Positions 10,285 through 51,637 of a stretch of DNA of 64,000 bases are shown one piece after another. The DNA lies in NCBI GenBank assembly GCA_016185545.1, contig JACPNJ010000005.1, forward strand, positions 4,549-68,548, given 5' to 3'. The notes under the pieces were generated by a model. The model was given only the letters and a program-made list of their open reading frames with translations, had not been told where the DNA came from and made no database searches. Numbering within the stretch: the stretch's first letter is position 1; each line of letters begins with the position of its first letter. A program made the position numbers and the translations under genes. The DNA is from Candidatus Yanofskybacteria bacterium (lineage in GTDB: Bacteria > Patescibacteriota > Minisyncoccia > 2-02-FULL-40-12 > IGHO2-01-FULL-4-A).

Positions 10285-11913
<1,629 letters not shown>

Positions 11914-11920
11914 TTAAAAA

Positions 11921-12045
11921 TTCGAATATCAAAATTCGAAATTCGAAACAAATTCGAAACGTTTTAAACATTCGAATTTTGGTCATTTGATATTGTTTCG
12001 GATTTCGTGATTCGGATTCCGAGTTTTATTAGAAATTAGAAATTA
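11921..12045. repeat. MITE-like element with (aaattcgaa)n left arm and (ttcggattt)n right arm, in the groES-groEL spacer
   Basis: Imperfect inverted arms; a closely related copy lies in frame inside uvrC (25919-26035) and shares a 22-nt identical core, attcgaatatcaaaattcgaaa. Confidence 0.5.
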
Positions 12046-12059
12046 AGCAATTATCGAAT

Positions 12060-12347
12060 TCATTCGATAATTGCAAGTATATTCTCCTCTTTAGCTATCA
12101 AATACTCTTTACCGTCGATCTTAATTTCATCTGGTCCGTATTTGGTAAATAAAACCTTATCGCCTTTTTTAACATTCAACGATACTTTTTTGCCGTTTTC
12201 ATCTATGCGTCCCGAGCCCACGGCGATCACACGGCCTTTTTCTGGCCGCTCTTTATCAATAGTTTCGGGCAATATTATTCCGCCCTTCTTTTTTTCTTCA
12301 TAGAGCGGCTCTATCAGAACACGATCAGCTAACGGTTTAATACGCAT
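12060..12347 (-). CDS. groES: co-chaperonin GroES
   Basis: MRIKPLADRVLIEP...GGIILPE...VIAVG. Confidence 0.95.
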   Translation of the reverse strand: MRIKPLADRVLIEPLYEEKKKGGIILPETIDKERPEKGRVIAVGSGRIDENGKKVSLNVKKGDKVLFTKYGPDEIKIDGKEYLIAKEENILAIIE

Positions 12348-12360
12348 ACAAATAAGGTGC

Positions 12361-12431
12361 TAGGGACTAGGGACTAGTTGCTAGCTTTAAATCCGAAACC
12401 TAGAACCTAAAACCTAAAACCTAGAACCTGG
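12361..12431. repeat. Heptamer tandem arrays (tagggac x2.4; aacctag/aacctaa x5) in the groES upstream region
   Basis: Direct head-to-tail 7-mers between the CIRCE element and the groES start. Confidence 0.85.
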
Positions 12432-12434
12432 TTT

Positions 12435-12461
12435 TTAGCACTTTCAGCCCAAGAGTGCCAA
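12435..12461. promoter_or_regulatory. CIRCE-like HrcA operator (TTAGCACTT-N9-GAGTGCCAA)
   Basis: Matches the CIRCE consensus TTAGCACTC-N9-GAGTGCTAA at 16 of 18 positions, upstream of groES. Confidence 0.7.
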
Positions 12462-14417: not shown

Positions 14418-15419
14418 CTACTGCGTGGTCAACCCGGAGTCTTTTTCTATTGCCAGTTGTGGTAAATTTAGTTTTAGCATTCGCTCGTTGTAATCCTTAA
14501 TTATTCGCATCTCTATTGAATGCGGATGAAATTCCAGCTGTTCATCAGTAAAAATCACACGCCCGCCAGTCTGATGACTCACGGGGTTGTGCGCGATGCG
14601 CCGCGATTGATAATGGCCAAACCATTTTTCCAAAACTCTAGCAATGCCGAAGTTATCAAGTAACCATTCAGTCAACTTCACCAAGAATTGAGAAGTTGAG
14701 CTTCTCAAACGAAGCTCAACTTCTTTATTTTCAATATCCCACTCGCAAACATAATCAAGCACCCAACCATTGGCTTTCTTGAAGTCATCTATTAATTCAC
14801 TATCACTGACAAAAATTGGCACGAGATTGGCATAGGTTTGGGCATTATAAATACTTTTGTGGGGAATACTCAGCGATTTATCTGTTATGTAATGGTTGAG
14901 GCAGATTTTATTAGGCGCAATCTTGTCATTGCCACGGCGACGCACGCGCAGGAGTGATAATAAGCCGGTTATGAAAAAGCGTGTCAGCCAGATTCGGCCA
15001 TGTTTAATAATGACTAAAACGTCCAGGTCGCTTAGCTCATCCATATTTCTCATGGCTAATGACCCTGAAGCAAAAACCACTTTTACATATGGTACTAAGT
15101 GTAGCCACCAAACGGCACGCTTGGTAATCTGCCATTTTCGTTGAGCGATTTTTTCACGCTTTATTCGCAATGGCACCAGATATTCCCGGTCAAATAGAAA
15201 ATAGTAACCCTCGCGTAAGCCAATGACTCCCTCCAAAATTAATTGGTCAAGTTCTCGAGAGACAGTGGACAGTGGACAGTAGACAGTGGACAGTAGGCTA
15301 ATGCCTAGATGTTGAAAATTTATCAAGTAATTAAAAACTTCTTCCATTTTCAACGGGAAATCAAAAACATCGTAATAGGTAAGGGTTGCCAGGATATTTT
15401 TTTTAAATTCGGACACCAT
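14418..15419 (-). CDS. nucleotidyltransferase-domain protein (hypothetical)
   Basis: GSLAMRNMDELSDLDVLV Pol-beta-type NTase motif; contains two in-frame repeat insertions. Confidence 0.5.
   Translation of the reverse strand: MVSEFKKNILATLTYYDVFDFPLKMEEVFNYLINFQHLGISLLSTVYCPLSTVSRELDQLILEGVIGLREGYYFLFDREYLVPLRIKREKIAQRKWQITKRAVWWLHLVPYVKVVFASGSLAMRNMDELSDLDVLVIIKHGRIWLTRFFITGLLSLLRVRRRGNDKIAPNKICLNHYITDKSLSIPHKSIYNAQTYANLVPIFVSDSELIDDFKKANGWVLDYVCEWDIENKEVELRLRSSTSQFLVKLTEWLLDNFGIARVLEKWFGHYQSRRIAHNPVSHQTGGRVIFTDEQLEFHPHSIEMRIIKDYNERMLKLNLPQLAIEKDSGLTTQ
14691..14724. repeat. In-frame palindromic element agaagttgagcttctcaaacgaagctcaacttct
   Basis: Near-perfect 14-bp arms; same family as the elements in murC and trpS; encodes EVELRLRSSTS. 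Confidence 0.8.
15261..15295. repeat. Heptamer tandem array (gacagtg/gacagta)x5 inside the NTase coding sequence
   Basis: Five head-to-tail 7-mers encoding STVYCPLSTV. Confidence 0.9.
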
Positions 15420-24965: not shown

Positions 24966-26393
24966 ATGAAAATTAATCCCAAAATCGTGCCCAAAACACC
25001 GGGTGTTTATTTTTTCCGTGATAAACATGGGCAAATTTTGTATATCGGCAAAGCGGTTAACTTAAAAAATCGCTTGGCCAGCTATTTTAAATCTCAACTT
25101 GGCGGTCGGACCGCTAAGTTGATGGAAAAAGCCATAAGAGTTAATTGGCAAAAGACTGATTCCGAAATAGAAGCCCTGATTTTAGAATCACAACTTATTA
25201 AAAAATATCGTCCGCCGTTCAACGTAATGCTGCGTGATGATAAACAGTATTTTTTTGTTGGATTCACGAAAGATGTGTTTCCACGCATCTTCTTGACTCA
25301 TCAACCGTTTGATTGTCGACGCTTAAAAAATTCAAAATCTAAATTTCAAAATTCAAATAATCTAAAACCTGATTTCGTTGGTCCATTCACTGATGGAAAT
25401 GCGCTAAGGATAACCTTGCGACTTCTGCGCCGCATATTTCCCTATTGCACTTGCAAGCAAAAGCATAATAATTATTGTTTGAATTATCATATTGGGAAAT
25501 GTTTGGGGTTTTGCTGTCTGAAAGATCAGAATCTAGAATCTAGAAAGCAGAATCTAGAATCATATAAGAAAAATGCCAGGGCGATAAAAGATATATTGAC
25601 AGGCAAGCGAAGCAGTTTGATAAAAAGATTTAAAAAAGAAATGCTGGAACTTGGCAAAAAACATGATTTTGAAAAAGCGATTGAATTACGCGATAAAATT
25701 ACGAAACTGAAAAAAGTTTTTGAGAATGCCCGCATCATTCTAGATTCCAAAAACAGGTCTACAGACAAAGATGCTTTAAAAAACTTAGCCAAAATTATCG
25801 GCACAAAATATATCCCAAAGCGAATAGAGGGTTATGATATTTCTAATATCCAAGGCGAATTTGCTACTGGTGCAATGGTCGTTTTTGTTAACGGCCGGCC
25901 TGATAAAAGCCAATACCGTAGGTTTAAAATTCGAAATTCGAATATCAAAATTCGAAACAAATCCAAAATTCAAAATTCAAAATCACAAAAGGTTTCGGAT
26001 TTCAGATTTCATGCTTCGGATTTCCGCTCTGTCGGAGATACGGCAATGTTGCGTGAAATATTAACTCGTCGGTTTAATCATCCGGAATGGCCACGGCCGG
26101 ATTTAATAATCGTAGACGGCGGTAGGGCACAACTAAATGTTGCAGCTAAAATAATCTATGGACATCGCAAGACCATAGGTCTTGCGATGACGGAAAATCT
26201 GATTCCGATTGTTGCTTTGACCAAAAACGATAAACACCGAGGAAGCCACATTTATGTTGGCGCTAAAAAAGCGGCTGTACCGTTGAAACAGTTACCATCG
26301 GCGGTTAGAAATCTGATTCTTCAAGTTGATTCAGAGACCCACAGGTTCGCGATTAGTTATTACAAAAAATTGCACAGAAAATTGGGCAAATAA
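24966..26393 (+). CDS. uvrC: excinuclease ABC subunit C, short form lacking the C-terminal (HhH)2
   Basis: GIY-YIG (GVYFFRDKHGQILYIGKAVNLKNR), Cys cluster, UVR domain, RIEGYDISNIQG/IIVDGGRAQL endonuclease domain; ends at 475 aa. Confidence 0.85.
   Translation: MKINPKIVPKTPGVYFFRDKHGQILYIGKAVNLKNRLASYFKSQLGGRTAKLMEKAIRVNWQKTDSEIEALILESQLIKKYRPPFNVMLRDDKQYFFVGFTKDVFPRIFLTHQPFDCRRLKNSKSKFQNSNNLKPDFVGPFTDGNALRITLRLLRRIFPYCTCKQKHNNYCLNYHIGKCLGFCCLKDQNLESRKQNLESYKKNARAIKDILTGKRSSLIKRFKKEMLELGKKHDFEKAIELRDKITKLKKVFENARIILDSKNRSTDKDALKNLAKIIGTKYIPKRIEGYDISNIQGEFATGAMVVFVNGRPDKSQYRRFKIRNSNIKIRNKSKIQNSKSQKVSDFRFHASDFRSVGDTAMLREILTRRFNHPEWPRPDLIIVDGGRAQLNVAAKIIYGHRKTIGLAMTENLIPIVALTKNDKHRGSHIYVGAKKAAVPLKQLPSAVRNLILQVDSETHRFAISYYKKLHRKLGK
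25528..25562. repeat. Heptamer array (agaatct-like x5) inside uvrC
   Basis: agaatct agaatct agaaagc agaatct agaatca; encodes QNLESRKQNLES. Confidence 0.8.
25919..26035. repeat. MITE-like aattcga/ttcggatt element inserted in frame in uvrC
   Basis: Same family as 11921-12045; encodes RNSNIKIRNKSKIQNSKSQKVSDFRFHASDFRS, which is absent from E. coli UvrC at this position. Confidence 0.5.
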
Positions 26394-27477: not shown

Positions 27478-27516
27478 TTTGCAGTCCACAGTTGTCAGTA
27501 AACAGTTAATATCTTT

Positions 27517-27548
27517 TATAAACTGTGAACTGTAAACTGTGAACTTTT
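27517..27548. repeat. Heptamer array (aactgtg/aactgta) downstream of secG
   Basis: aactgtg aactgta aactgtg aactttt. Confidence 0.8.
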
Positions 27549-27662
27549 CTAATTAATAACGATTATAATCAATTAGATAATTTTTTCTCGTCTCCCAAGA
27601 ATACAAAAAACGACAAGCATATCAGTAAGATAAAGCGAAAATGGTTTCAATTATTTGAACTA

Positions 27663-29547: not shown

Positions 29548-29631
29548 GCTCGGGTGGTGAAATTGGCAGACACGTTAGCTTCAGGAGCTAATGGGAGCAA
29601 TCCCGTGGGAGTTCAAATCTCCCCCCGAGCA
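29548..29631 (+). tRNA. tRNA-Leu (anticodon CAG), type II with long variable arm
   Basis: Acceptor GCTCGGG/CCCGAGC, anticodon arm TTAGC-ttCAGga-GCTAA, variable-arm hairpin GGGAgcaaTCCC, T-arm GGGAG-ttcaaat-CTCCC; CCA not encoded. Confidence 0.85.
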
Positions 29632-29980
29632 CAATTGAACGAAGTGAAATTGGGAGTGGGGAGCAACACGCCTGCGCGTGTTGCGTGGAGATGAGAACGC
29701 CGGAGCGATGTTTGACGAGCAATCGGTGAGTCAAACCGCGAGGAGGTGGCTAGACTAAATTAGCGGAAGCTAATTTAAGTCAAAGCCAAATCTCCCCCCG
29801 AGCACAATTGAACGAAGTGAAATTGGGAGTGGGGAGCAACACGCCTGCGCGTGTTGCGTGGAGATGAGAACGCCGGAGCGATGTTTGACGAGCAATCGGC
29901 GAGTCAAACCGCGAGGAGGTGGCTAGACTAAATTAGCGGAAGCTAATTTAAGTCAAAGCCAAATCTCCCCCCGAGCACAA
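29615..29980. repeat. Tandem 173-bp direct repeats (2 full copies plus a 20-bp partial) beginning inside the tRNA-Leu 3' end
   Basis: Units at 29615-29787 and 29788-29960 differ by 1 nt; the partial copy at 29961-29980 abuts the ATG of the downstream ORF. Confidence 0.85.
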
Positions 29981-34054: not shown

Positions 34055-35368
34055 TCACAGCGATCCTTTTATTTCCGAAAGCTTCTCTTCGAGAAGCTTT
34101 TTTGTTTTTGCTTCCACCACTAACCGCAAAACTGGTTCGGTATTTGACGGCCTGAAATTGAACCACCAATCGGGATATTCCACCATTATCCCATCCAGTT
34201 CATCAATTTTCCCGTCTTTATATTTTTCCTTAAGTTTTACGAAAACTTGTTCCTTGTTCCATGTTTCATGTTTTGCGATATTAATTTCTCCGGAATTAAA
34301 CCAAGTTCTAAATTGTTCGGTTAATTCCCGAATATTCTTCCCGCTCTTATTTATTATTTTTAACAGCCGCAACATAACTAGAAATGGCATTTCATTGTAG
34401 TTGGTCTCTTTGAAATAAATATGACCCGATAATTCACCACCGATATCAGCATCGTATTTTACTATATTTTCCCGTATAAAAGTCCTGCCATTTTTGGAAT
34501 GAATCGCCTTAATTCCCCACTCTTTAAATTTTTCCAGCACTCCCCTTGAAAATCTCCAATCGTATATTACTTTGGGTTTTGTCCAAAATTTAATACCGCT
34601 TTGTACCAATAAACCGATAACGTATTCGGAATGTATCGGTTTCGCCGCGGAATCAAAAATATAAATTCTGTCGGCGTCTTCGTCAAAGCCAAAAGATAAA
34701 TCGTATTGCTCGTTTATGCTTATAATGCCGGTTTTTTTAACCAATGACTCAAGCTCGTCGGCGATAGTGGCTTGCGGTTCTATCTTTACTCTTACGGCAT
34801 TTGAATCGCGAACATTCCAGGATGATTTTTTAATTATAAAATCAGTATAGGAGTCAATGAGTTTTTGCCGGTCTTGTTTAATTAACTTACCGCCGTACCT
34901 GGATACTTCAAAGTTTTTATTTTCAGTTAAAATAACTTTAATTTTTTCCAAACCGGAATTCAGCCCCACAATAACACCACCCTCGCCGAAAACTTTGAAT
35001 CCTCCGTACTGCGGGCCGAGATGTGAAGCCGTCAGCATAACTCCGCCATTAACGCCAAGTTTTTTAAGGGCAAAATTAAAAAGCGGGGTTGAGGCCAATC
35101 CTATAAATTCAACATCCGCGCCAACGCTTGTAATGCCCTTGACCAGCGCTTGGGCCAGTTTTTCTGAAAATTGGCGGCTGCCATAGCCTATAAGAAATAT
35201 CCGTTTGTTGATGTATTTGACCAGCGCTTGGCCGAGTTTGAATGCAAAATCCTCATCAAAATCACGGCCGTAAATGCCGCGGATATCATAGGCTCTAAAG
35301 ATTTCCGGATTAAAGTTCACTGCGCAGAAATTGTTGAATAATCTAGCATATGCTAGATTATTCAACAA
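34055..35368 (-). CDS. phosphoglucomutase/phosphomannomutase family protein
   Basis: GFDEDADR Mg-binding, GGELSGHIYF sugar-binding and RPSNTEP phosphate-binding motifs. The start is uncertain: the six-frame TTG start lies in a palindrome, and GTG at 35320 is an alternative. Confidence 0.8.
   Translation of the reverse strand: MLNNLAYARLFNNFCAVNFNPEIFRAYDIRGIYGRDFDEDFAFKLGQALVKYINKRIFLIGYGSRQFSEKLAQALVKGITSVGADVEFIGLASTPLFNFALKKLGVNGGVMLTASHLGPQYGGFKVFGEGGVIVGLNSGLEKIKVILTENKNFEVSRYGGKLIKQDRQKLIDSYTDFIIKKSSWNVRDSNAVRVKIEPQATIADELESLVKKTGIISINEQYDLSFGFDEDADRIYIFDSAAKPIHSEYVIGLLVQSGIKFWTKPKVIYDWRFSRGVLEKFKEWGIKAIHSKNGRTFIRENIVKYDADIGGELSGHIYFKETNYNEMPFLVMLRLLKIINKSGKNIRELTEQFRTWFNSGEINIAKHETWNKEQVFVKLKEKYKDGKIDELDGIMVEYPDWWFNFRPSNTEPVLRLVVEAKTKKLLEEKLSEIKGSL
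35331..35368. promoter_or_regulatory. 38-bp perfect palindrome between the divergent pmm-like and murC genes
   Basis: ttgttgaataatctagcat|atgctagattattcaacaa; overlaps the annotated TTG-start N-terminus of the pmm ORF. Confidence 0.45.
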
Positions 35369-39866: not shown

Positions 39867-40007
39867 ATAGTTTCGAGGCAGAACGAACACGAAGCGATAG
39901 TCAGAATCAAAGACGTTGTCGGGATTGCCGTAATACGCGTTCAACCAAGGTTCGCCATCGTTACGATTCACATCGAACACGTTCAGGTTGCCGTCGGAGT
40001 CAGTAAT
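39867..40007 (-). repeat. DGR template repeat (TR), template strand minus
   Basis: Aligns to 40261-40401 at an offset of 394 bp. All 16-17 mismatches are T on the + strand, which is A on the TR coding strand; there are no other mismatches in 133 bp. Confidence 0.85.
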
Positions 40008-40260: not shown

Positions 40261-40401
40261 TTACTTGCGAGGCAGAACGAACACGAAGCGATAGACAGAA
40301 ACAAAGACGCTGTCGGGACAGCCGCAAAACGCGCCCAACCAAGGTTCGCCATCGAAACGATTCACAACGAACACGCGCAGGCTGCCGTCGGAGTCAGTAA
40401 G
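40261..40401 (-). repeat. DGR variable repeat (VR) at the 3' end of the target gene
   Basis: See the TR entry. The TR-encoded peptide has Asn (AAY) where the VR peptide has S/R/F/G/C/K, and TR Asp/Tyr codons also vary. Confidence 0.85.
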
Positions 40402-41118: not shown

Positions 41119-41973
41119 TTAAATTTTTCCCACCGATCCAAAGAGCTCCAGATATTTTTTAATCATTCTCTTCATCTCTTCATAAGAGGACTTGAGGTAT
41201 TTGTAGGGCGTGGTTTCTTTGGGTTCTTTTTCAAGTTCTTCATGCAATGTATCATGATAAGCCACGCGGAGCTCGGTGTTAATGTGGACATTGGCGATAC
41301 CGTTTTGTATCGCCATTTTTATTTCTTCAGCCGGTAAGCCCGAAGCACCATGCAGCACAAGCGGCACTACAGGTATGGCTTGAACTATTTTTTTTAGATG
41401 CCCAATGTCTAAATGCTCTTCCTGATTAGTAACGATTCCGTGGATATTGCCGAAAGCTACGGCAAGCCGGTCAACACCAGTGCGCGTGACAAAATCGCGC
41501 GCCTGCTCCGGTTGAGTATAATCCGCCGGACTTATTTCTATTTTCTCCTGAACTTCCGAACTGCCACGCAAATATCCCAATTCTCCCTCAACCTCTAAGT
41601 TAAAGGATTGGGCGTAATCAACAACTTTTTTGGTTAGAACTATGTTTTCTTCGTATGAATGTTTTGATGCATCTATAAGTACTGAATCATAACCGGCATT
41701 AACGACGGCTTTGGTTGTTTCCCAACTTTTATGATGGTCGGCATTCAGGAAAACCGCGTGGCCATTTTTCTGATATGATTTAACCAAAGCCACCGCCTGT
41801 TCCCTGCCGACAAAATCCGCTTCGCTTTCCGAGGTCCCGACCATAATCGGCGATTTCAGCTCCATCGCCGCCTCAACAAACGCCTTGAGCTGGTCTGCCG
41901 TAGAAAAATTAAAATGCCCCAGCGCCCATTTGTCCGCCACCGCTTCATTAAAATACTGTTTTAAGGTTTTCAT
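41119..41973 (-). CDS. fba: class II fructose/tagatose-bisphosphate aldolase
   Basis: VLHGASG, NADHHKS, GELGYL metal-ligand pattern. Confidence 0.85.
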   Translation of the reverse strand: MKTLKQYFNEAVADKWALGHFNFSTADQLKAFVEAAMELKSPIMVGTSESEADFVGREQAVALVKSYQKNGHAVFLNADHHKSWETTKAVVNAGYDSVLIDASKHSYEENIVLTKKVVDYAQSFNLEVEGELGYLRGSSEVQEKIEISPADYTQPEQARDFVTRTGVDRLAVAFGNIHGIVTNQEEHLDIGHLKKIVQAIPVVPLVLHGASGLPAEEIKMAIQNGIANVHINTELRVAYHDTLHEELEKEPKETTPYKYLKSSYEEMKRMIKKYLELFGSVGKI

Positions 41974-41983
41974 AAATTCAGAT

Positions 41984-42186
41984 TGACATCTGATTTTCTT
42001 ACAACATCATGTCTTCCTGTAAATCTTCCTCGTTGAGCTATGGATTCCTTAAAATATGCGGTTATCCATTCCCCCTCCGCCTACTGGCTACGGGGCCCGC
42101 ATATTTCTTAAGGAATCATATACGCTCAACTCGTTGATTTACTAGTCGGCAGATGAATGACGAAAATCAGATATCAATCTTATTTT
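41984..42186. mobile_element. MITE-like ~200-bp element (left copy) with 19-bp terminal inverted repeats
   Basis: Left end agattgacatctgattttc versus RC of right end agattgatatctgattttc (18/19); internal long palindrome; inverted homologue at 44515-44700. Confidence 0.5.
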
Positions 42187-42370
42187 ATTAGCCGTGAACT
42201 ACAAGCGAGTCATAATACATTTTGGGACTTTTTGGGGCAGGCCCCAGCATGGTTTTGTCATAGGCCTTGCGCCTTGACAAATGGGGCTGCTCCAACAAGA
42301 TGAGCCGAACTCGCTGGGCTCGGCGAAGTTTCCAAAAGGTATTATGACGAGCTGTTAAACGAATGGCGAT

Positions 42371-44514: not shown

Positions 44515-44700
44515 GCAAGCCCCTTAGTTTTTCGTCATTCGTCTGCCGACTAACAAATTGCCGAGTTGAGCGTATATTGTTCCGCTGAAATATGCGGGTC
44601 GCGAAGCAGGAATGGATAACCGCATATTTCTAGGAACAATAGCTCAACGAATGCAATTTGTAGGAAGGCATGACGTTGTAAGAAAAATTAAGGGGCGAGC
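44515..44700. mobile_element. MITE-like element (right copy, inverted and diverged)
   Basis: Its reverse complement aligns along the whole length of 41984-42186. Confidence 0.45.
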
Positions 44701-44764: not shown

Positions 44765-45757
44765 TCACCTTCGTTCCTTAACCTCAACTAACGGCCATGT
44801 GCCCCAGTCACCTTTTTTAAGTATCCCCTCCTTACTCCCCACCTTCGTTACCACCGACGAGGAATTCGCCGTGGCAAACTGCATCGCTTTCTTAATGTCT
44901 CCGCTCCTCATATATTCTGCTACAAATCCTGAATTATAGGCATCTCCTGCTCCAGTCCGTTCAATGATCGGCGAGTCCGGCACCCCGGCAGAATAAAAAA
45001 CATCTTTGGCAAAAACTTTTGAGCCATTGTGTCCATCGGTCAATATAACCATGCCGCAACAGGTCAGTGATAACTTTTTTAATGTTTCCTCAACTTCTTC
45101 GGGTTTCGTACCGACCAACTGCGCGCCTTCTTCTTTATTCACCGCGAAAATATCAATATGCTTCAGGAGCGGCTCTAGTTTTTCAAAACCAAGTTCTAAT
45201 TCTTTGCCTCCGGGATTACAGGCAATTTTAATATTATTTTTTACAGCATGATTAACCAGCGCTTCAAATAAATCGTAATGCCCGCCAAGAGAATCAATAT
45301 AAAACCATTTAGCCTTTAATTTGCTAAAAGGTATATTTTTTACATCAAAATGCTGGCCCTCGCCCTTGTAGCTTAAAATTGTCCTCTCAGCATTAGGATT
45401 CATTAAAATCACGGAATAAGCAGTGCTGTCGTCACCATGAACCTGAAATAATGGTTCTATTTTTTCTTTTTTAAGTTCTTCGATTATCTCTTTGCCGGTC
45501 ATATCGTTACCAATAACCCCGACACAGGCAGCTTTAAATCCTTGCCGCCCAAACGTAACCGCTGAATTTGTTCCCCCGCCACCAGTAGTAAAAACAATTT
45601 CTTTTATACTAAGCTTGGAACCAAGCGAAAAACATTGTTCAACGCCAGTCGGCGAATCGGCATGTTTGCGCAATTCAACACCCTCCATTTTGAGAAAAAC
45701 GTCTCTAGTCGCCGAACCGATTGTAATAATGTCATACATAGAAAATTCAAAACTCAA
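44765..45757 (-). CDS. PfkB-family carbohydrate kinase (ribokinase-like)
   Basis: ERTGAGDAYNSGF DTxGAGD motif; GG dipeptide near the N-terminus. Confidence 0.8.
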   Translation of the reverse strand: MSFEFSMYDIITIGSATRDVFLKMEGVELRKHADSPTGVEQCFSLGSKLSIKEIVFTTGGGGTNSAVTFGRQGFKAACVGVIGNDMTGKEIIEELKKEKIEPLFQVHGDDSTAYSVILMNPNAERTILSYKGEGQHFDVKNIPFSKLKAKWFYIDSLGGHYDLFEALVNHAVKNNIKIACNPGGKELELGFEKLEPLLKHIDIFAVNKEEGAQLVGTKPEEVEETLKKLSLTCCGMVILTDGHNGSKVFAKDVFYSAGVPDSPIIERTGAGDAYNSGFVAEYMRSGDIKKAMQFATANSSSVVTKVGSKEGILKKGDWGTWPLVEVKERR

Positions 45758-45803
45758 ATTATAAATTTTAAAACAGTTTTATACTTTGAATTTTAGATTT
45801 CAT

Positions 45804-46466
45804 TTAAAATTTAAAATTTGAATTTGGTTGATTGTCAGTAGCAGCTTGCAATTTTTGAATTGCCGCTTTGATATCCTTGCTCTCCCAAATATAACTTCCT
45901 GCTACCAACATGCTTGCCCCTGCCTCAATCAGTTTAGGTGCCGTCTCCGGTGTCACCCCTCCATCTACTTCAATCGGCTTATCAGGATAATAAAAATGAA
46001 AATCTTTTATTTTTTCCACAACCGATTCCACAAATTCGCCTCCGTAAAACCCGGGCTCAACAGTCATAAAATGCACAAAATCAACTTGATCAATGTACGG
46101 TCCAATTTTATTGACCGGGGTTTGGGGATTGACCGCAATACCTATTGTTTTATCCGCCTCTTTGACCGCATCTATTACTTCTTGAGCCTTATTTGTTGCT
46201 TCAATATGGAAAATAAATTTGTCAGCTGGGGTTTCAAGCCAGCGGACAATGTGATTCTCGGGTTTTGAAACCATCAAATGAACCCCGATTTTTAAATTTG
46301 TATCCAACGACTCCACTTCTTCAAATCCCAGCATTGTCATATTAGGCACAAAAATCCCATCGGCAATATCAAGGTGAATACGTTCAACATGCGTTTCAAC
46401 TGCCAAAATTTTACTTAGCAATTCCTCTTTAGTTTTAACCAGAATTGAAGGTATTACCTCTGTCAT
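45804..46466 (-). CDS. rpe: ribulose-phosphate 3-epimerase
   Basis: IHLDIADGIFVPN, GIAVNP, VDGG. Confidence 0.85.
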   Translation of the reverse strand: MTEVIPSILVKTKEELLSKILAVETHVERIHLDIADGIFVPNMTMLGFEEVESLDTNLKIGVHLMVSKPENHIVRWLETPADKFIFHIEATNKAQEVIDAVKEADKTIGIAVNPQTPVNKIGPYIDQVDFVHFMTVEPGFYGGEFVESVVEKIKDFHFYYPDKPIEVDGGVTPETAPKLIEAGASMLVAGSYIWESKDIKAAIQKLQAATDNQPNSNFKF

Positions 46467-50705: not shown

Positions 50706-51323
50706 TTAAAAATCTATAACTTTTGCTTTTTTATAATACTCCTCCAATACCTCCCAATTCAGATTTTTCCAAAACACAGCAATGTATGCCTTGCGGTCAC
50801 TGCCGTGATCTATGAAATATGCATGCTCATAGACATCAAGCGCAATTATCGGAATACAACCCCAAACGGCATGGTCGTGAGTATCGCCGTTGTATTGTTT
50901 GAGTCGCTTCTCATGCAGGTCCCAGGCCAGCACCGTCCAGCCACGAGCGGCCATGGCGCATTCGCCGAAGTATTTCTGGAAATTCTCCGCCGAGCCCCAT
51001 TTCTCTGATATTGCCGCCGCGAGCTCGGGCGCTTTTTTATAATCCCCATCTCCGCCAAGTGCGCCAAAAAACCATTCATGCAAATAAACACCATTTACAG
51101 CAAATGTCTCGCCGAGTTTCAATGCGCGGAGCTTGCTATAAGTCGTATTCCCGCCGGGCGCAGTACCGGCAATAATTTCATTCCGTAGCTTCCCGAGTTC
51201 ATCTCCTATCTCATTGGCTTTATCAACATAGCCCTTATAGAGCTTACCGTGGTGGATTTCGTTAGTTTTTGTGGATATGCCATCTAATTCTTTATCAAAC
51301 GGCAATGGTTTGAGTTCGTACAC
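50706..51323 (-). CDS. sod: Fe/Mn superoxide dismutase
   Basis: HHGKLY, ALDVYEHAYF. Confidence 0.9.
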   Translation of the reverse strand: MYELKPLPFDKELDGISTKTNEIHHGKLYKGYVDKANEIGDELGKLRNEIIAGTAPGGNTTYSKLRALKLGETFAVNGVYLHEWFFGALGGDGDYKKAPELAAAISEKWGSAENFQKYFGECAMAARGWTVLAWDLHEKRLKQYNGDTHDHAVWGCIPIIALDVYEHAYFIDHGSDRKAYIAVFWKNLNWEVLEEYYKKAKVIDF

Positions 51324-51324
51324 A

Positions 51325-51395
51325 GGTTATAGGTTATAGGTTATAGGTTATAGCTTTATTGCATCTATAATCTATAAGCTATTACCTATCAGCTA
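51325..51395. repeat. Two heptamer arrays (ggttata x4; ctatNNN x5) between sod and grx
   Basis: Read directly from the sequence. Confidence 0.85.
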
Positions 51396-51400
51396 TCACC

Positions 51401-51637
51401 TCATTTAATTCCCAGCAGTTGGTCAATCTTCCCGCGGTCAAAACCAATAACAATCTGACCGTCTATCATAATAACCGGTACGCCCATCTGATGGGTCTTG
51501 TCTATCATTTCTTGGCGCTTGATCGGATCCTCTGCCACATCATGCTCGGTATACTCCACATCATTCTTCTTGAAGTATTCCTTAACCATCTTGCAATATG
51601 CGCACCATGGGGTTGTATAAATTTCTACTTTTGCCAT
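51401..51637 (-). CDS. glutaredoxin-like protein (CxxC)
   Basis: MAKVEIYTTPWCAYCKMVKEYF; the start is probably the internal ATG. Confidence 0.7.
   Translation of the reverse strand: MAKVEIYTTPWCAYCKMVKEYFKKNDVEYTEHDVAEDPIKRQEMIDKTHQMGVPVIMIDGQIVIGFDRGKIDQLLGIK

Follow-up and report, generated by a model that had tools for sequence, protein, structure and literature searches.

The DNA analysed here is a 64-kb window (the whole stretch of 64,000 nucleotides) from a metagenome-assembled genome (MAG) of Candidatus Yanofskybacteria, which belongs to the Parcubacteria within the candidate phyla radiation (CPR). It carries two copies of a short hairpin element whose arms are made of tandem units of 7 nucleotides (nt): copy A occupies the spacer between groES and groEL, and copy B lies in frame within uvrC. 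Both are probably members, lacking an open reading frame (ORF), of a widespread family of heptamer-armed hairpins of the same type as the intervening sequences (IVSs) of 23S rRNA, a family that would behave as selfish DNA. Conservation of the element is at the level of nucleotides and does not depend on the host gene; the element is dispersed, leaves no target site duplication (TSD), and changes length in steps of 7 nt. Below, L-numbers designate loci from other genomes and P-numbers designate UvrC homologues.

An initial annotation of the window had described copies at 11921-12045 and 25919-26035, with an identical core of 22 nt and the same imperfect layout of inverted arms. The core is present, but it measures 24 nt (AAATTCGAATATCAAAATTCGAAA, at 11918-11941 and 25934-25957), and it is one of just five exact repeats of at least 20 nt in the whole window. 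In both copies, a left arm of the (AAATTCG) type is followed by a short centre and then by a right arm of the (TTTCGGA) type, and the length differences in their alignment are 7-nt indels, that is, whole units. Membership was assessed with nhmmer arm profiles built solely from copies in other genomes. Copy A matched these profiles with E = 1.5e-8 on the left and E = 4.7e-11 on the right, and copy B with E = 2.7e-13 and E = 4.5e-5, respectively. The similarity is that of a homologous repeat and no accident of AT-rich sequence. Neither copy reaches the usual length of the family. Copy A folds at -26.3 kcal/mol (z -1.4) on the mRNA (-) strand and at -33.9 kcal/mol (z -2.3) on the (+) strand; the mRNA-sense strands of copies A and B both fold like shuffled sequences (z -1.4 and -1.35). 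Copy A has at least one stop codon in each of the six frames, and the three forward frames of copy B are all stop-free.

The family was collected by a scan with the 24-nt core, allowing two degenerate positions and taking one genome per species. The core was found in at least 120 genome stretches, in many phyla. Among the matches listed were Thermodesulfobacteriota (including Desulfobacterales), Planctomycetota (including Kuenenia/Brocadiaceae and Gemmataceae), Aminicenantes, Verrucomicrobiota/Lentisphaerae, Nitrospirota, Chloroflexota (Dehalogenimonas), Omnitrophota, Binatia, BRC1, Deferribacteres, and at least 12 CPR lineages. The GC content of the host loci ranged from 0.32 to 0.67; because flanks are GC-rich, the spread across phyla is considered real, though MAG labels may be partly wrong. 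The family consensus reads 5'-AAATCCG AAATTCG AATATCG AAATTCG AAACAAAT... / ...ATTTGTTTCG GATTTCG TGCTTCG GATTT-3', in which the CGAA and TTCG cores pair; in a longer rendering of the left arm, the same first four units are followed by AAACAAATTC... and then by the loop. The right arm, which lies outside the search pattern, is also conserved among copies, and so are the left-arm unit AATATCG and the right-arm unit TGCTTCG, which do not base-pair with one another. Copy lengths in the family range from 75 to 250 nt, the hairpin typically having roughly 100 to 190 nt. For 56 well-bounded copies, the median length was 144 nt and the median minimum free energy (MFE) was -40 kcal/mol (z -5.2), with z below -3 in 51 of them; the strand defined by the pattern folded slightly better than its complement in 37 of the 56 (P = 0.003).

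We then looked at these copies for marks of transposition. A TSD (a direct repeat of at least 2 nt at the junctions) was absent in 53 of the 56 well-bounded copies, the palindrome did not extend into the flanks of the 56, and the flanks were merely A/T-rich. No transposase was found between the arms in any of 129 copies (about 1.25 Mb of loci), the sole enclosed ORF being of the PF05635 family. The orientation of copies relative to neighbouring genes showed no preference (16 same, 26 opposite, 11 convergent and 11 divergent). A phage vector was considered and rejected, as a single match was obtained in 2.9 million viral contigs. There was no match in 72,556 PLSDB plasmids or in E. coli genomes, where the BLAST low-complexity filter may hide weak ones. 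No Rfam 15 family was recognised, either in the groESL region at E<=10 or in eight loci and the whole window at the gathering score, and the sub-threshold matches were spurious miRNA-like hairpins only. Neither the core sequences nor the cross-phylum family were found in the literature searched, subscription journals being outside that search. At one locus followed in 10 metagenome samples, no polymorphism in heptamer copy number was seen and the sequences were identical. Adenine mutagenesis between the arms, of the kind operated by diversity-generating retroelements, was also considered and dropped, as arm differences are not confined to adenines. Small genes for Cys-rich peptides with double-glycine-like leaders have the left arm of the element upstream of them at L033 (Aminicenantes MAG) and L079 (Deferrimicrobium MAG).

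Two loci of Ca. Doudnabacteria, L060 and L118, have the ORF-less hairpin inside the 23S rRNA gene, at position 1218/1219 of the large subunit model. This insertion point is the terminal loop of the helix following the GTPase-centre sequence, which corresponds by offset to E. coli position ~1170, in helix 45; the hairpin was found there in either orientation. Helix 45 is where bacterial IVSs are classically found. The Coxiella IVS is also located in helix 45: its stem, made of terminal inverted repeats, is cut by RNase III, an S23p ORF lies in its loop, and it contains tandem heptameric repeats whose number varies among strains (PMC4990558). At four other loci, L018 (Gemmataceae), L035 (Dehalogenimonas), L090 (Berkelbacteria) and L026, the arms are 400 to 540 nt apart and enclose an ORF of about 120 amino acids (aa), in either orientation, that matches PF05635 (23S rRNA-intervening sequence protein) and TIGR02436 (four helix bundle protein). 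Its predicted product is S23p, an Avd-like four-helix bundle. A PF05635 ORF is also present in the loop at L207 and L210. In a reverse test, loci were chosen by protein similarity alone, and in five of five independent loci the gene had complete hairpins or arms of the AAATCCG type next to it. Nine independent loci have these arms around or alongside a PF05635 gene; at L078 and L094, other PF05635 genes have inverted arrays of different heptamers on their two sides. The hairpin-linked S23p subfamily has at least 7999 database matches, with a dense cloud at about 70 to 78% identity, mostly on contigs of 0.5 to 3 kb; such short contigs are expected if assemblies break at the repeated arms.

The presence of the hairpin in helix 45 and of the arms around PF05635 genes suggests that the family is the stem of an IVS-type cassette, of which the window copies would be empty derivatives of the size of a MITE (miniature inverted-repeat transposable element). 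Judged by sequence and architecture, the element belongs with the 23S rRNA IVSs, known from helices 45 and 25 in Coxiella, Leptospira and Salmonella among others, and with S23p cassettes. Besides the location of some members in the helix-45 loop, the family resembles these IVSs in its long inverted-repeat stem (the window copies fold weakly), in arms that may enclose a PF05635 ORF, as some IVSs carry S23p (the window copies are ORF-less), and in a stem of tandem heptamers of variable number, as in Coxiella (PMC4990558). Unlike these IVSs, the window copies lie in an mRNA spacer and in a protein gene, not in rRNA, and one of them is predicted to be translated.

When the UvrC of the window was compared with Geobacillus UvrC (PDB 3c65), residues 283-324 and 358-472 aligned, and residues 325-357 faced about 5 residues. 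Copy B therefore corresponds to an insert of about 28 aa in the RNase-H-like endonuclease domain; it preserves the frame, as the initial annotation had proposed. In the AlphaFold2 model, the predicted local distance difference test (pLDDT) score is below 50 for residues 326-355, which lie between a strand (318-323) and a helix (358-370). We refer to this position as site 2, and to a second insertion hot spot, further upstream in the gene, as site 1. Among 120 UvrC homologues, the site-2 loop normally has 4 to 8 residues, and 13 to 41 in 24 of them; six UvrCs share the site-2 peptide NSNIEIRNK.K..NSK.KT.SD.GF..SDFRS. In L005, the closest relative (72% aa identity), the site-2 loop is ordinary and empty.

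At the DNA level, the site-2 inserts of the window, L001, L002 and L003 do not differ in where they lie, in length (84 nt net), in orientation or in reading frame. Identity among these inserts is 80 to 86% overall and 82 to 91% at third codon positions, compared to 59 to 64% and 37 to 42%, respectively, for the rest of uvrC among insert carriers. Since its third-position identity is far above that of the host gene, the insert is not evolving as part of the protein. In a tree of 118 sequences, the six UvrCs that bear the insert are scattered, each having insert-free sequences as its nearest neighbours; five carriers fall within a clade of 39, and the window carrier is placed elsewhere. Empty sites are ordinary loops of 4 to 8 residues with no trace of the element. 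Third-position conservation and scattered carriers favour recurrent insertion at one uvrC site over old inheritance, and repeated gain is more likely, being the simpler reading of these sequences. At its 3' edge, copy B has a small hairpin, CCG-CTCTGT-CGG, which 4/4 orthologous uvrC inserts possess and the empty site lacks.

Site 1 is also variable, with 4 to 51 residues among the 120 homologues, and it holds other hairpin-type peptides. The window has an (AAAATTC)n array there, which the initial annotation had taken, at about 25320-25375, for a weaker third relative of the element. The array is genuine, but it has no significant match to the family arm profiles (E > 1). The residues that it encodes (118-132) have a pLDDT below 50, and L004 carries a full element at the same site; the array may plausibly be a decayed remnant of the element. 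A further in-frame array of uvrC, (AGAATCT)4.9, is assigned to the general heptamer phenomenon described below, and not to this family, because its heptamer differs. This array has an interruption at the very point where the next unit would bring TAG into frame. Another family of hairpin-derived peptides (..VSS.KYQV....NTKY.I.NTD..) occupies site 1 in several Parcubacteria (P0053, P0074, P0082, P0086, P0093, P0111 and P0119). Because of such inserts, UvrC length ranges from 412 to 525 aa in the clade.

In-frame copies are not confined to the uvrC of the window: they were found in uvrC of relatives, in a transketolase gene (L024) and in rarA (L092), in both orientations, and the frame was kept in every genic copy. 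Arrays of AAATTCG, AAATCCG, AATATCG or AAGCACG have no stop in any of the six frames, and stop-free arm units make the family able to survive inside genes. Among the genic copies of window uvrC, L001-L004, L024 and L092, those in forward orientation all use the same one of the three open frames (NSNIEIRNK), even at two uvrC sites, and both in reverse orientation use the frame SNFDIRIS.

The other copy was claimed to widen the groES-groEL spacer to about 150 bp, and comparison with relatives supports this. The spacer has 149 nt in the window, compared to 21 nt in the closest relative (L126), and a range of 4 to 179 nt with a median of about 31 among 78 relatives. No sigma-70-like promoter match was found within the window spacer. 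Directly upstream of copy A in the operon, a perfect 12-bp hairpin includes the stop codon of groES and leads into a T-rich tract; it appears terminator- or attenuator-like. Long spacers in unrelated lineages (L127, L131, L165, L171, L180 and L203) contain heptamer hairpins of quite other sequence, for example CAACTTA.../...TTGTAAG and CCGTCCA.../...GCGGACA. The groES-groEL spacer is a recurrent home for heptamer hairpins.

These observations can be assembled into a likely history. The element would enter, without a classical transposase, A/T-rich sequence that resembles its own arm; the uvrC target AAATTTAAAAT resembles arm units, and we speculate that entry is assisted by homology. Copies would then persist only at harmless places, such as the spacer of an operon or a loop at a protein's surface. 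Copy A would be co-transcribed, in antisense orientation, within the groESL operon, where it may offer a double-strand-RNA processing site, and copy B would be translated as a disordered UvrC loop of about 28 residues. The window copies would be shortened, weakly folding and decaying versions of the element.

Other origins were weighed. The initial annotation had qualified the element as MITE-like, which holds in so far as it is a dispersed homologous repeat with inverted arms. A classical MITE, that is, a deletion derivative of an insertion sequence (IS) moved in trans by a transposase recognising its terminal inverted repeats, would likewise be small, multicopy, mostly intergenic and made entirely of inverted repeat, and one S23p locus (L213) adjoins an IS66 transposase, though the ends are not shared. 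Such an origin is nevertheless unlikely, given that TSDs are missing in 53/56 copies, that the palindrome stops at the flanks, and that no transposase partner was found, PF05635 being the sole ORF enclosed in 129 copies; sequence conservation across phyla is also unusual for MITEs, and the viral, plasmid and E. coli searches described above yielded one match. The copies could also have no common origin and be simple sequence, produced by independent replication slippage on an AT-rich heptamer. Varied heptamer arrays are indeed found all over the window (13 compared to 0.4 expected), the excess of heptameric simple sequence repeats (SSRs) in bacteria has been ascribed to polymerase slippage (PMC4692102), and the window shows no enrichment in the 10-mer AAATTCGAAA at up to one mismatch (26 observed, 22.7 expected). 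We give this hypothesis almost no weight: the shared 24-mer contains an irregular unit, AATATCA, the irregular order of units (AAATTCG AATATCG AAATTCG AAACAAAT ... TGCTTCG) recurs in more than 120 stretches and in other phyla, and profile E-values go down to 1e-13. Slippage is refuted as the origin, and likely remains the cause of changes in unit number. Selection by the host for an RNA element is less easily dismissed, although we regard it as rather improbable. The hairpin between groES and groEL would in this case be kept as an RNase III site or an attenuator uncoupling the amounts of GroES and GroEL. In Agrobacterium, the groESL mRNA is cleaved between both genes. A terminator-like hairpin closes groES just upstream of copy A, long spacers elsewhere repeatedly contain other heptamer hairpins, and RNase III is known to act on IVS stems of such a kind (PMC4990558). 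Against this, the family has no orientation bias relative to its neighbours (16 versus 26), copy A is antisense to the operon with an mRNA-sense fold no better than shuffled (z -1.4), the closest relative copes with a 21-nt spacer, and the same element is also found within coding sequence.

Two further alternatives concern only the uvrC insert. It may descend from a single, ancient, vertically inherited insertion, held by constraint on the DNA or by gene conversion, and precisely lost in most lineages. Hairpins are prone to precise deletion, and the identity of position, net length, orientation and frame in the window, L001, L002 and L003 fits such a history; but its carriers are scattered, with five in one clade of 39 and that of the window elsewhere, empty sites are ordinary loops free of any trace, and third-position identity of 82 to 91%, compared to 37 to 42%, would need very strong non-coding constraint throughout divergence. 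We therefore hold a single insertion to be doubtful, if still the most serious of these competitors. The insert might instead be removed before or after translation, like an intron or an intein, leaving the protein unaffected. Intervening sequences abound in the rRNA and tRNA genes of CPR genomes, and the same hairpin is an rRNA IVS at L060 and L118. Removal is all the same very hard to credit for an insert whose length is a multiple of 3, which is stop-free, unlike the intergenic copy A, and whose frame is intact in all genic copies; moreover, excision of IVSs by RNase III is not followed by ligation (PMC4990558), and no intein feature, group I or II intron feature, or Rfam match was found.

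Membership of the window copies in a selfish, IVS-type family remains our preferred explanation, and several points weigh against it. There is no PF05635 gene in the 64-kb window, so that no trans-acting partner is shown for this genome. An ORF is enclosed in only 4 of 129 pattern-matched copies, which is compatible with capture of the ORF by the hairpin, instead of derivation of the hairpin from an ORF cassette. The mechanism of movement is inferred throughout. The weak folds of the window copies (z -1.4 to -2.8) leave a structural role here uncertain; they fit decay, or selection against RNase III-sensitive stems in mRNAs, with two copies giving a weak indication at most. The same-site uvrC inserts could reflect one old insertion with constraint or gene conversion and many precise losses. 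Finally, sampling by an exact 24-nt core inflates the apparent conservation and misses diverged copies, and some host genomes may be mislabelled.

The element was also compared with other families of short bacterial repeats. Rickettsia palindromic elements (RPEs) are palindromes of about 100 to 150 bp, found in frame in unrelated housekeeping genes, where the added peptide is compatible with the fold, and also in intergenic copies (PMC10969869). The stop-free, in-frame family copies in uvrC, transketolase and rarA genes, for which translation is predicted, are similar. RPEs are, however, confined to one genus whereas the present family spans phyla, and the latter has heptamer-periodic arms and a link to IVSs and S23p; judged from heptamer consensus and host range, sequence membership in RPE families is implausible. 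In heterocystous cyanobacteria, hairpins of short tandemly repeated repetitive (STRR) sequences extend helix P12 of RNase P RNA. STRRs and heptameric SSRs (Nostoc GGGGAYT, Xanthomonas GGGAATC) resemble the family in their tandem 7-nt units, mostly intergenic, sometimes forming inverted stem-loop pairs, and of unexplained origin (PMC4692102); but STRRs are described as lineage-specific simple repeats, whereas this family has a fixed, irregular order of units in each arm, a cross-phylum distribution and a linked gene. Repetitive extragenic palindromes (REP/BIME, and REPINs, mobilised by RAYT) are likewise short intergenic hairpin repeats of high copy number without TSD. They differ in being species-specific and tied to the RAYT gene, which is IS200/IS605-like, whereas the family here is associated with PF05635; no RAYT gene was noticed beside the copies examined, in which no search aimed at RAYT was made. 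MITEs such as Correia, ERIC and Nezha are similar in size, inverted arms, multicopy state and occasional in-frame intragenic copies, and the family differs from them in having no TSD and no cognate IS or transposase in the ~1.25 Mb of loci.

What appears to be new is that one IVS-type hairpin family occurs across phyla, in mRNA spacers and in CPR protein genes, is consistently tied to a PF05635 subfamily, and forms a bridge to the heptamer excess. One conserved sequence family thereby links three decades-old questions: the origin and movement of IVSs, the role of S23p outside diversity-generating retroelements, and the over-representation of heptamers. With the same hairpin in helix 45 of 23S rRNA, surrounding S23p genes, in the spacers of operons and, frame preserved, within housekeeping genes, these questions become testable: S23p may bind or mobilise the hairpin, RNase III may cut the stems in mRNAs, and sites may be polymorphic, filled or empty, in populations. 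Tentatively, and with less confidence than for family membership itself, one may go further and propose that hairpin and PF05635 gene together constitute a distinct mobile cassette that spreads between phyla without transposase or TSD, with S23p as a mobility or maintenance factor and arm-like sequences or hairpin loops as targets. Such a cassette could be the common source of 23S rRNA IVSs, of much of the heptamer excess and of RPE-like inserts in CPR; we see this as possible, not as probable. Like Rickettsia, CPR bacteria with their tiny genomes put up with apparently selfish hairpins within essential proteins, which matters for gene calling, for protein-family alignments and, as S23p genes are mostly found on very short contigs, for assembly.

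Beyond what the initial annotation had seen, the two copies are one case of a window-wide excess of heptamer arrays and hairpins. The 13 period-7 tandem arrays of the window, compared to 0.4 in dinucleotide shuffles, have no equivalent at any other period, and two sets of loci from other genomes gave 14 compared to 0.7 and 154 compared to 2.7. The unit varies from place to place (GTAACTG, CTAGGGA, AAACCTA, GACAGTG, AGAATCT, AACTGTG, AGGTTAT and others), and most window arrays pair with an adjoining degenerate inverted array. Some are in frame in genes: one in mnmA, one in an unnamed ORF, one in a phosphoglucomutase gene (34246-34273), and three in uvrC. Besides uvrC, mnmA (tRNA 2-thiouridylase) is a housekeeping gene that carries a heptamer-hairpin insert, although from another family. 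The GACAGTG unit is stop-free in six frames, and it resembles the GACAGAT repeats of the Coxiella IVS. The intergenic hairpins after secG, upstream of the superoxide dismutase gene, upstream of groES, and between the PfkB kinase and ribulose-phosphate epimerase genes all belong to sequence families other than AAATTCG; the first two are very stable, with 5-bp stems interrupted every 7 nt, and the array at 45739-45825 was not assigned to the AAATTCG family by the profiles. Other window heptamers (GTAACTG, GACAGTG, AGGTTAT and so on) were not shared with the loci from other genomes, so that the AAATTCG family alone is shown to be widespread. An as yet unexplained excess of heptameric repeats has already been described for bacteria (PMC4692102). 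The coordinates of the main features are collected in the table.

Table. Position of the two copies, their host genes and the other heptamer features in the 64-kb window
Feature	Position	Strand	Basis or remark
(GTAACTG)4...(CTAATTA)4 hairpin, in frame in mnmA (1154-2332)	1834-1903	mnmA on (-)	encodes ...NVISNPKLVIRRSKNQLPVTSYQ...
groEL	10285-11910	(-)	ORF and Pfam Cpn60_TCP1
groES-groEL spacer, 149 nt	11911-12059	(-)	ORFs
Copy A, hairpin without ORF between groES and groEL, antisense to the operon	11918-12028	(+)	
Copy A, left arm (7-nt units)	11918-11962	(+)	
Copy A, centre	11963-11994	(+)	
Copy A, right arm GTTTCGGATTTCGTGATTCGGATTCCGAGTTTT	11995-12027	(+)	
(ATTAGAA)2.6, short heptamer array adjoining copy A	12028-12045	(+)	Tandem Repeats Finder and period scan
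Perfect 12-bp hairpin GCAATTATCGAA-TGAA-TTCGATAATTGC with groES stop codon, then T-rich tract	12047-12074	(-)	terminator-like scan
groES	12060-12347	(-)	ORF and Pfam Cpn10
Intergenic heptamer hairpin upstream of groES	12355-12435		
(GACAGTG)x4.9, in frame in unannotated ORF (14418-15419)	15261-15294	ORF on (-)	
uvrC, 475 aa, GIY-YIG, UVR and UvrC_RNaseH domains	24966-26393	(+)	Pfam, PDB sequence search, homologues
(AAAATTC)n array, UvrC insertion hot spot 1 (after THQP)	25323-25364	(+)	repeat families, Tandem Repeats Finder
(AGAATCT)4.9 array, in frame in uvrC (QNLESRKQNLES)	25528-25561	(+)	Tandem Repeats Finder, translation
Copy B, in frame in uvrC (residues ~322-355, RNSNIKIRNKSKIQNSKSQKVSDFRFHASDFRS)	25922-26026	(+)	
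Copy B, left arm/array	25926-25983	(+)	
Copy B, right arm	25992-26024	(+)	
Small CCG-CTCTGT-CGG hairpin, 3' edge of copy B	26024-26035	(+)	alignment, DNA of relatives
Intergenic heptamer hairpin after secG	27480-27550		z ~-5 to -6
Intergenic heptamer hairpin between PfkB kinase and ribulose-phosphate epimerase genes	45735-45830		
Intergenic heptamer hairpin upstream of superoxide dismutase gene	51315-51405		z -4.3 to -5.8

Repeats of other kinds were also encountered in the window. The last 21 nt of a tRNA-Leu(CAG) gene at 29548-29632 (CAAATCTCCCCCCGAGCACAA) are repeated at 29787-29807 and 29960-29980, and these repeats bound two tandem units of 173 nt that are 99% identical. This region (29548-29980) has the look of a tiny element, present in two copies, that has integrated at the 3' end of the tRNA gene with an att-like duplication. 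A direct repeat of 139 nt is found at 39868-40006 and 40262-40400, its copies being 88% identical and 394 nt apart. Lastly, several inverted-repeat segments at 41972-42188 and 44529-44686 (36 to 55 nt, 81 to 86% complementary) bracket about 2.4 kb, which may be an insertion sequence or another bounded element.

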